NCBI RefSeq assembly: GCF_003334305.1
Contig: NZ_QOWS01000015.1
Direction: 5' to 3' (one strand)
DNA length: 64,000 nt
DNA from: Escherichia coli
GTDB taxonomy: Bacteria; Pseudomonadota; Gammaproteobacteria; Enterobacterales; Enterobacteriaceae
The notes under the pieces were generated by a model. It saw only the letters and a program-made list of their open reading frames with translations. It was not told the DNA's origin and made no database searches. Below, one piece after another: positions 22,515 to 61,329 of this stretch (its first letter is position 1; each line of letters begins with the position of its first letter). Position numbers and translations under genes: made by a program.

Positions 22515-23693
22515 TTAACCCTGTACTTTTACCTGTCCGGCGGCGTGCTTCGCGCGTTCAATGGCGTCAACAACACTCTCAGCGGTCGCCAGCGCAACAC
22601 CCAGACGACGGCTGCCATCAATTTCCGGCTTACCAAATAAACGAATCTGCAAATCTGCGCCTACGGCATTCTGCACATTATCAAACGTGACATTCTGACT
22701 GGTCAGTTGTGGCAGAATAACGGCAGAAGCTGCAGGACCATACTGACGGATCCCGCCAACAGGAAGTCCGAGGAAGGCACGTACATGCAGGGCAAACTCT
22801 GAGAGATCTTGAGAAATTAACGTCACCATCCCGGTATCATGTGGACGAGGGGAGACCTCACTGAAAATCACCTCATCACCACAGACAAACAGCTCGACAC
22901 CAAACAGACCATAACCGCCCAGTGCCAGCACCACTTTACGGGCAATCTCCTGCGCACGTTCAAGGGCAAGCGGGCTCATTTGCTGTGGTTGCCAGGATTC
23001 ACGGTAGTCGCCATCTTCCTGGCGATGACCTACTGGTGCACAGAAATGGACGCCATCCACCGCGCTGACGGTTAGCAGGGTAATTTCGAAGTCAAACTTA
23101 ACGACGCCTTCAACAATTACGCGGCCCGCTCCGGCGCGACCGCCTTGCTGAGCGTATTCCCATGCCTGAGCAAGTTGCTCTGCAGAACGAATAAACGTCT
23201 GCCCCTTGCCGGAAGAGCTCATCACCGGTTTTACAATGCAGGGATAGCCAATGGCGGCAACCGCCTCGCGGAAAAGGCTTTCGCTATCGGCAAAACGATA
23301 AGTGGAAGTGGGCAGCTGCAGCTCTTCTGCCGCCAGGCGACGGATACCCTCGCGATTCATCGTTAATTTCGTTGCGCGAGCGCAGGGGACAACATTCAGT
23401 CCTTCCTCTTCAAGTTGGATCAGCATATCGGTGGCAATAGCTTCGATCTCCGGCACGATATAATGTGGTTTTTCCAGTTCAACCACACGGCGTAATGCAT
23501 CACCATCAAGCATATTAATGACATGGGAGCGATGCGCGACATGCATGGCTGGTGCGTCGGCATAGCGATCGACGGCAATCACCTCTACGCCGAGACGCTG
23601 ACACTCGATTGCCACTTCTTTACCCAGTTCACCGGAGCCTAATAACATCACGCGAGTTGCTGCCGGACGCAGCGCAGTGCCTAATAACGTCAT
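22515..23693 (-). CDS. purT: formate-dependent phosphoribosylglycinamide formyltransferase (ATP-grasp)
   Basis: 392 aa; ATG (cat 23691-23693); PurR box 38 nt upstream. Confidence 0.95.
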
Positions 23694-23730
23694 AACGAAT
23701 ATCCCCTGATTAATTCCGCGCGCAGTATAA

Positions 23731-23746
23731 ACGAAAACGTTTGCGT
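23731..23746. promoter_or_regulatory. PurR operator of purT
   Basis: ACGAAAACGTTTGCGT; its reverse complement ACGCAAACGTTTTCGT is a perfect match to the 16-bp PurR consensus; 38 nt upstream of the purT ATG. Confidence 0.75.
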
Positions 23747-23789
23747 GTGTCTTTATTGCTGATGTTGATTTCTCAACCGAAAAGAAATA

Positions 23790-23809
23790 TACTGTATAAA
23801 ATCACAGTT
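23790..23809 (+). promoter_or_regulatory. LexA operator (SOS box) of yebG
   Basis: TACTGTATAAAATCACAGTT (CTGT-N8-ACAG) 18 nt upstream of the yebG ATG. Confidence 0.75.
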
Positions 23810-23826
23810 ATTATGAGAGGCTGCAA

Positions 23827-24117
23827 ATGGCGGTTGAAGTTAAATACGTAGTCATTCGTGAGGGCGAAGAGAAAATGTCGTTTACCAGCAAAAAGGAAGC
23901 CGATGCTTATGATAAAATGCTTGATACGGCGGATCTGCTTGACACCTGGCTGACAAATTCTCCAGTGCAAATGGAAGACGAGCAACGTGAAGCCCTTTCG
24001 CTATGGCTGGCAGAACAAAAAGATGTGCTGAGCACCATTCTGAAAACCGGCAAATTACCGTCCCCACAGGTCGTCGGTGCTGAATCCGAAGAGGAAGATG
24101 CCTCACACGCGGCCTGA
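23827..24117 (+). CDS. yebG: SOS-inducible protein YebG
   Basis: 96-aa ORF; LexA box 18 nt upstream of the ATG. Confidence 0.85.
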   Translation: MAVEVKYVVIREGEEKMSFTSKKEADAYDKMLDTADLLDTWLTNSPVQMEDEQREALSLWLAEQKDVLSTILKTGKLPSPQVVGAESEEEDASHAA

Positions 24118-24135
24118 AGCAACTTGCGCTCCTGA

Positions 24136-24540
<405 letters not shown>

Positions 24541-31280: not shown

Positions 31281-31367
31281 AACATTTCAGCTGATGACCA
31301 CCACGCTTTTTATTGACCATTTTGCACGCAAACTGGAAAACCTGGCGTCGTCATCTATTCTTAAAGG

Positions 31368-31470
31368 GCAAGGCAACTAAGCCTGCATTAATGCCAACTT
31401 TTAGCGCACGGCTCTCTCCCAAGAGCCATTTCCCTGGACCGAATACAGGAATCGTGTTCGGTCTCTTTTT
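31368..31470 (+). ncRNA. sdsR: small regulatory RNA SdsR (RyeB)
   Basis: Sequence recalled as SdsR (GCAAGGCAACTAAGCC...); ends in hairpin GACCGAA-N13-TTCGGTC plus TCTTTTT; lies between yebY and pphA. Confidence 0.6.
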
Positions 31471-31604
31471 ATCTGTTAAAAGCCAGAAGCATTTCCTTCG
31501 CTGACTTTATAGTCAACCATAACACACACTCTACTGTCTGAGTCCAGCGTTTTTTAACATTCTTGTTAAGATTATGTGATCTTTAGCGCGGGAGGAAAAT
31601 ATTG

Positions 31605-61313: not shown

Positions 61314-61329
61314 CTGTTCAAATCAACAG
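61314..61329 (+). promoter_or_regulatory. LexA-type operator immediately upstream of yoaA
   Basis: CTGTTCAAATCAACAG = CTGT-N8-ACAG, ending 9 nt before the yoaA GTG at 61338. Confidence 0.55.

Follow-up and report, generated by a model that had tools for sequence, protein, structure and literature searches.

Organization of the purT-yebG intergenic region

The window analyzed here, a 64-kb stretch of the Escherichia coli chromosome, contains the divergently oriented genes purT and yebG, whose ATG codons at 23693 (minus strand) and 23827 enclose a spacer of 133 bp at 23694-23826 (Table 1). Both the divergent arrangement and this length had been proposed in a first-pass annotation of the sequence, and both agree with the ORF coordinates and the RefSeq annotation. 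A segment of 901 bp around the spacer is matched in 5426/5426 complete E. coli genomes, in which purT, yebG, and yebF are the RefSeq annotations lying under the match, and the gene order in the MG1655 record is ptrB-yebE-yebF-yebG / purT-eda-edd. The 133-bp spacer is 100% identical between MG1655 K-12 and the window, so that experiments performed in K-12 are directly applicable to this DNA.

Table 1. Features of the purT-yebG region. Positions refer to the window; conservation gives, per column over 79 sequences, the proportion that share the base of the window.
Feature	Position	Strand	Conservation	Description and evidence
purT CDS	22515..23693	-		Formate-dependent GAR transformylase, 392 aa; ORF list and RefSeq annotation of identical or near-identical DNA
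purT Shine-Dalgarno AGGGGA	23702..23707	-		8 nt before ATG; putative, read from the sequence
purT leader			0.49	
purT -10 TATACT	23724..23729	-	0.96	Promoter scan; TATACT or TATAAT in 79/81 loci; Shimada 2014
PurR operator ACGAAAACGTTTGCGT	23731..23746		0.98	Within the purT -35/-10 spacer; motif match, ChIP-chip, Sort-Seq
purT -35 AAGACA	23748..23753	-	0.78	18-bp spacer; promoter scan; AAGACA in 56/81 loci; Shimada 2014
Segment between the two -35 hexamers	23754..23764		0.38	11 bp, unconstrained; takes all length variation among species
yebG -35 TTGATT	23765..23770	+	0.65	17-bp spacer; promoter scan; Shimada 2014
yebG -35/-10 spacer			0.41	
yebG -10 TATACT	23788..23793	+	0.96	Overlaps the left arm of the LexA box; TATACT in 64/81 loci
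LexA (SOS) box TACTGTATAAAATCACAGTT	23790..23809		0.93 (arms)	Ends 17 bp before the yebG ATG; CTGT-N8-ACAG core
yebG Shine-Dalgarno GAGAGG	23815..23820	+		Putative, read from the sequence; GAGAGGCTGCA block conserved
yebG CDS	23827..24117	+		DNA damage-inducible protein YebG, 96 aa, PF07130; ORF list and RefSeq

A repeat search of the spacer found two palindromes, that of the PurR box and GCGCGC in the purT start region, and nothing else; comparison of the spacer with Rfam gave no match. Elsewhere in the window, Rfam matches at gathering score were found at 31330-31474, where SraC/RyeA (minus strand) overlaps the antisense sRNA SdsR/RyeB (plus strand), and at 46961-47421, a 5' region of the cspA-thermoregulator type (plus strand). 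Reports of a cAMP dependence of yebG prompted a scan for a CRP site; the closest candidate to TGTGA-N6-TCACA in the spacer has 3/10 mismatches, falls within the LexA box, and was rejected.

One natural disruption of the region was observed. In E. coli MS 21-1 (NZ_CP146670.1), an ISL3-like ISEc53 transposase gene and a gene of the ClbS/DfsB family interrupt the purT-yebG spacer (positions 3111-5026 of locus L082). This insertion is present in 1/5426 E. coli genomes, and the match to the window ends at spacer position 110 (~23803), within the LexA box.

Two promoters and their geometry

A consensus promoter scan of positions 23500-24300 returned exactly two promoter-like sites, one on each strand. 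Shimada et al. 2014 list both hexamer pairs for the spacer as targets in SELEX with RpoD holoenzyme, and H-NS is also marked there; with RpoS holoenzyme, the strongest SELEX peak of the whole genome (390-fold) lies at the 5'-proximal region of purT (~23626), and a 63-fold peak lies in the spacer (Shimada 2017). In the description given by Belliveau 2018 (PMC6003448), the RNA polymerase site of yebG is placed 9 bp downstream of a computational prediction from 1997. If this shift is counted from TATACT, the -10 element of yebG would alternatively be TAAAAT at 23797-23802, within the LexA box.

From these elements we infer start sites at ~23717 for purT and at ~23800 or ~23809 for yebG, together with the exact hexamers given here. 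In U00096.3 coordinates, these starts correspond to ~1930857 (+) for purT and to ~1930774 or ~1930765 (-) for yebG. With these starts, the PurR box occupies -14 to -29 of purT and -54 to -69 (or -63 to -78) of yebG, its centre lying at -61.5 of yebG for a start at ~23800 or at -70.5 for a start at ~23809, while the LexA box occupies -73 to -92 of purT. Each operator is clear of the opposite -35 hexamer, by 18 bp in the case of the PurR box and yebG and by 36 bp in the case of the LexA box and purT. The two boxes had been described as 44 bp apart; this figure is the difference between the end of one and the start of the other, and the intervening DNA measures 43 bp (a calculated length of about 146 A of B-DNA), or 61 bp from centre to centre.

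On the minus strand, the TATACT hexamer of purT is followed by the GC-rich discriminator GCGCGCG (23717-23723), and the corresponding segment is GC-rich in other genera too. This suggests a stringent- or supercoiling-sensitive promoter, a property that could explain why purT drops under many stresses.

The PurR operator of purT

The PurR box named in the first-pass annotation was recovered at the same coordinates and with the same sequence, ACGAAAACGTTTGCGT, which reads ACGCAAACGTTTTCGT on the purT strand. Its description as perfect holds with respect to the ChIP-derived motif ACGNAAACGTTTGCNT, of which 14/14 specified positions are matched, but not with respect to the ideal palindrome ACGCAAACGTTTGCGT, from which the box differs by 1 mismatch. 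It is the sole match at no more than 1 mismatch in the 64-kb window, and 0/100 dinucleotide shuffles gave any such match. The box occupies the 18-bp spacer of AAGACA-18-TATACT, where bound PurR would block initiation.

Published data locate PurR at this very site. The ChIP-chip region assigned to purT by Cho et al. 2011 (PMC3159470) contains a motif with the sequence ACGAAAACGTTTGCGT at 1,928,852-1,928,867 (U00096.2), an interval that falls exactly on 23731-23746 when its coordinates are mapped to the window, and the log ratio at the site was 1.02 without and 2.00 with adenine. Belliveau et al. 2018 (PMC6003448; PNAS 115:E4796, Fig. 5) applied Sort-Seq to both promoters of the spacer. For purT, this revealed -35 and -10 signals and, with adenine only, a repressor site between them, whose matrix resembles that of PurR (r = 0.82). 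PurR was recovered on the site by affinity chromatography in the presence of hypoxanthine, the footprint vanished in a delta-purR strain, and the authors termed the promoter a "simple repression architecture" (PMC6003448). Binding of PurR at the purT site in vivo and in vitro, and its placement between -35 and -10, have thus been shown by others on identical DNA.

In these respects, purT differs in no matter of substance from the other PurR-regulated promoters of the pur regulon (purF, purMN, purHD, purEK, purC, and others). It carries the same 16-bp palindromic PUR box with a central CG, serves a target in purine biosynthesis, is bound in ChIP-chip, and loses its repressor footprint in delta-purR; a PUR box between -35 and -10, as in purT, is found in 14/32 PurR-regulated promoters. 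The gene was a late entry to the documented regulon, appearing as a new member in Cho 2011 (PMC3159470) and as "previously uncharacterized" in Belliveau 2018 (PMC6003448).

The LexA operator of yebG

The position and sequence of the LexA box likewise stand as first annotated, namely TACTGTATAAAATCACAGTT at 23790-23809. The box has the full CTGT-N8-ACAG core and an AT-rich centre, and differs from the idealised 20-mer at 5 positions. It overlaps the TATACT hexamer (23788-23793), or fully covers the alternative TAAAAT. The core motif occurs twice in the 64-kb window, against an expectation of 0.65. Neither the LexA box nor the PurR box is a chance match.

The gene is a classic LexA-dependent SOS gene. 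Sort-Seq identified RNA polymerase and LexA sites at yebG and induction by mitomycin C (PMC6003448). In a 2024 study of AZT, yebG was induced 4.4-fold by AZT with a lexA dependence of 9.7-fold, and its LexA box has an HI of 6.3 according to Courcelle's values as quoted there. In Salmonella, yebG was induced 41-fold by nalidixic acid, and its LexA box likewise lies 17 bp from the ATG. As in the SOS boxes of the recA, sulA, umuDC, and dinI type, CTGT-N8-ACAG covers the -10 element or start site and induction depends on LexA; compared with these genes, yebG has one box of middling affinity, and the function of its product is poorly defined.

The second copy of the core in the window, CTGTTCAAATCAACAG at 61314-61329, lies 9 bp upstream of a 636-aa ORF (61338-63248), which is taken to be yoaA by size and position. 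In the SOS table of 2024, yoaA has a weak LexA box with an HI of 13.

Conservation of the two operators across species

A scan with a YebG alignment, using one genome per species, yielded 80 loci from as many enterobacterial species, among them members of Escherichia, Citrobacter, Salmonella, Klebsiella, Raoultella, Kosakonia, Phytobacter, Buttiauxella, Cedecea, and Franconibacter, and also Erwinia rhapontici; the counts below are given over 81 loci or sequences unless stated otherwise. Divergent purT lies upstream of yebG in 80/80 loci, and the spacer measures 127-144 bp in all of these but one, in which it measures 261 bp. The PurR box upstream of orthologous purT (at most 3 mismatches, mostly the identical 16-mer) and a CTG-N10-CAG LexA box are both present in 81/81 loci, while the flanking spacer DNA has diverged. 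At 17-bp spacing, the commonest yebG -35 hexamers are TTGATT (28 loci), TTGAGT (9), TTGCGA (7), and TTGCGG (5). The aligned sequences resolve into two promoter-operator blocks, with no conserved element between the modules (Table 1).

The operator gap is 41-44 bp in 74/81 sequences, 51-55 bp in 6, and 170 bp in 1, and gaps of 45-50 bp were not seen among the 81 sequences. Length varies solely in the segment between the two -35 hexamers: 74 loci have 9-12 bp there, 6 have 19-23 bp, and 1 has 138 bp. Insertions of roughly one helical turn occur in three lineages, with 8 bp in L005/L006, 11 to 13 bp in L030-L032, and 9 bp in L072, and the operators are intact in each: Escherichia whittamii and Escherichia sp. 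E1V33 have 8 additional bp between the modules, Superficieibacter has 11 to 13, and K. pneumoniae has 9, in what looks like a 9-bp tandem duplication. The widest spacing is found in Klebsiella spallanzanii (L074), where an imperfect palindrome of ~126 bp sits exactly between the two -35 hexamers and the operators are again intact. We take this palindrome to resemble an ERIC element.

The spacing of the operators invites the question of whether it is itself maintained. With 41-44 bp in 74/81 loci, the operator gap varies less than the length of the purT leader (35-44 bp), a difference mostly explained by the fixed promoter elements. Conservation of helical phase was considered as evidence of coupling, since the insertions of 8, 9, 11 to 13, and 126 bp are all near whole turns; this pattern is, however, not significant, because it comprises only about four independent events and changes of 1-3 bp are tolerated too.

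yebG in other neighbourhoods

Representatives at 50-60% identity to YebG were examined for a LexA box, purT, and a PurR-like box. One of them (L090) keeps the order purT-yebG-yebF-yebE with both boxes. L083-L085, L091, and L093 have different neighbours, with no PurT match and no PurR-like box nearby. A LexA box is nonetheless present in all of them, at 14-30 bp from the ATG and frequently within the context TATACTGTAT. The LexA box of yebG is thus found in 81/81 purT-linked loci and also in these unlinked ones. In L086-L089 and L092, neither CTG-N10-CAG nor purT was found upstream of yebG.

A separate observation concerns L088 (1490-2434) and L089 (832-1776), in which yebG is represented by a distant homologue (37% identity); two genes upstream of it, and in the same orientation, lies a Peptidase_S24 (LexA/UmuD-like) gene. 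No CTG-N10-CAG was found directly upstream of yebG in these two loci.

Two independent modules or coupled promoters

We consider it very probable that the spacer is built of two simple-repression modules that stand back to back and act autonomously, and the geometry, the conservation pattern, and the published reporter data all point to their independence. The first module would be the sigma-70 promoter of purT on the minus strand, AAGACA-18-TATACT, with the -35/-10 spacer filled by the 16-bp PurR operator; PurR with bound hypoxanthine or guanine would occlude RNA polymerase and switch purT off when purines are plentiful. The second would be the yebG promoter on the plus strand, TTGATT-17-TATACT, whose -10 element and start-site region lie under the 20-bp LexA box, such that a LexA dimer would block initiation until RecA-stimulated self-cleavage in the SOS response. 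Between the -35 hexamers lie 11 bp of unconstrained DNA, which separate the modules. In this arrangement, neither repressor would reach the opposite core promoter, so that each gene would follow its own regulon. Both PurR and LexA are plain dimers, and the 43 bp of DNA between their boxes exclude direct contact between them.

The first-pass annotation had put forward the opposite idea, that either repressor, once bound, could exert a steric effect on the opposite promoter. The present data do not support this. Each operator overlaps its own core promoter only, Sort-Seq on both promoters gave only "directional regulatory features" (PMC6003448), insertions of 8-13 bp and of ~126 bp occur between the modules with the operators intact, and yebG has retained its LexA box at loci that lack purT beside it. 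A single site overlapping or affecting both promoters, by which coupled divergent promoters are recognized, was found neither in the geometry and conservation of the spacer nor by Sort-Seq or in the insertion variants. The steric idea is therefore disfavoured, short of formal refutation.

In its most explicit form, this idea would have PurR at -61.5 (or -70.5) hinder or help the docking of the alpha C-terminal domains of polymerase upstream of the yebG -35 hexamer, and LexA at -82.5 modulate purT, with the consequence that yebG output during SOS would depend on purine status. The only conceivable contact is the former, and it requires a yebG start near 23800; the PurR box would then touch the distal UP-element zone of yebG. 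PurR is, moreover, on its site even without added adenine, and the conditions described for yebG Sort-Seq were M9 glucose with or without mitomycin C only (PMC6003448). Against this stand the gaps of 18 and 36 bp, which keep every operator off every opposite core element, and the result of Sort-Seq over a region wider than the one plotted, in which regulated positions fell only in a 60-bp stretch per promoter and were "directional" (PMC6003448), so that mutation of the opposite module can be argued to have had no visible effect. Although LexA occupied its box under the conditions used to assay purT, no signal at that box was reported for the purT promoter. Between the modules, the DNA lacks conservation and varies in length, helical phase is not preserved to within 1-3 bp, the ~126-bp insertion is tolerated, and other genera have yebG with its LexA box in places without purT. 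Interference of either repressor with the opposite promoter is accordingly highly improbable.

Coupling might also act between the promoters themselves, either because polymerases compete for overlapping upstream DNA or because negative supercoils generated at one promoter stimulate the other. The predicted starts are ~83-92 bp apart, and upstream footprints reaching to about -55 would overlap over roughly 23745-23772. A GC-rich discriminator makes open-complex formation sensitive to supercoiling, and purT has such a discriminator in GCGCGCG. Both RpoD and RpoS holoenzymes bind the spacer strongly in genomic SELEX. The expression data run the other way: a multi-stress meta-analysis shows purT going down together with the pur genes and yebG going up together with the DNA-repair genes, so that the two move oppositely, in step with their respective regulons, and AZT tends to lower the purine genes as a class but raises yebG. 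Mutations in the hexamers of the opposite promoter gave no reported Sort-Seq signal (PMC6003448), and the variant with ~126 bp between the promoters exists. We regard this reading as highly improbable as well. A qualification applies to the Sort-Seq evidence, since the reporters were plasmid-borne single-direction fusions, and coupling that needs both chromosomal units to be active, for example through supercoiling, would be missed by them (PMC6003448).

With all kinds considered together, some form of coupling is unlikely. A weak chromosomal effect, exerted by PurR at ~-61.5 of yebG or by transcription-generated supercoiling, is very unlikely; it would mean that purine status tunes the size of the yebG SOS response, or that SOS induction nudges purT.

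A shared operator was also considered and rejected on geometry. The model for this is uvrA-ssb, a divergent pair sharing a single LexA box, which resembles purT-yebG in having a short divergent spacer with an SOS box. Unlike uvrA-ssb, purT-yebG has two different repressors, each with its operator on one core promoter, and neither a shared operator nor a conserved element between the -35 hexamers.

Relation to previous work and significance

The arrangement of two independent modules is not new. The region is already known in full and has been experimentally dissected on identical DNA, and with PurR ChIP-chip, Sort-Seq and affinity purification, and the LexA-dependent induction of yebG all published, the observation itself is already known. 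Fig. 5 of Belliveau 2018 (PMC6003448) presents the same two operators and promoters on identical DNA in one figure, with a summary of the whole intergenic region in panel E; in that study, Sort-Seq was performed with adenine for purT and with mitomycin C for yebG.

If coupling were nevertheless true, one SOS gene would be tied to the supply of nucleotides, and the region would provide a compact natural system for interference between back-to-back promoters. As it stands, the finding has little importance beyond correct annotation, and the purT-yebG spacer represents a clean textbook case of two simple-repression promoters in a short spacer and a test case for Sort-Seq.
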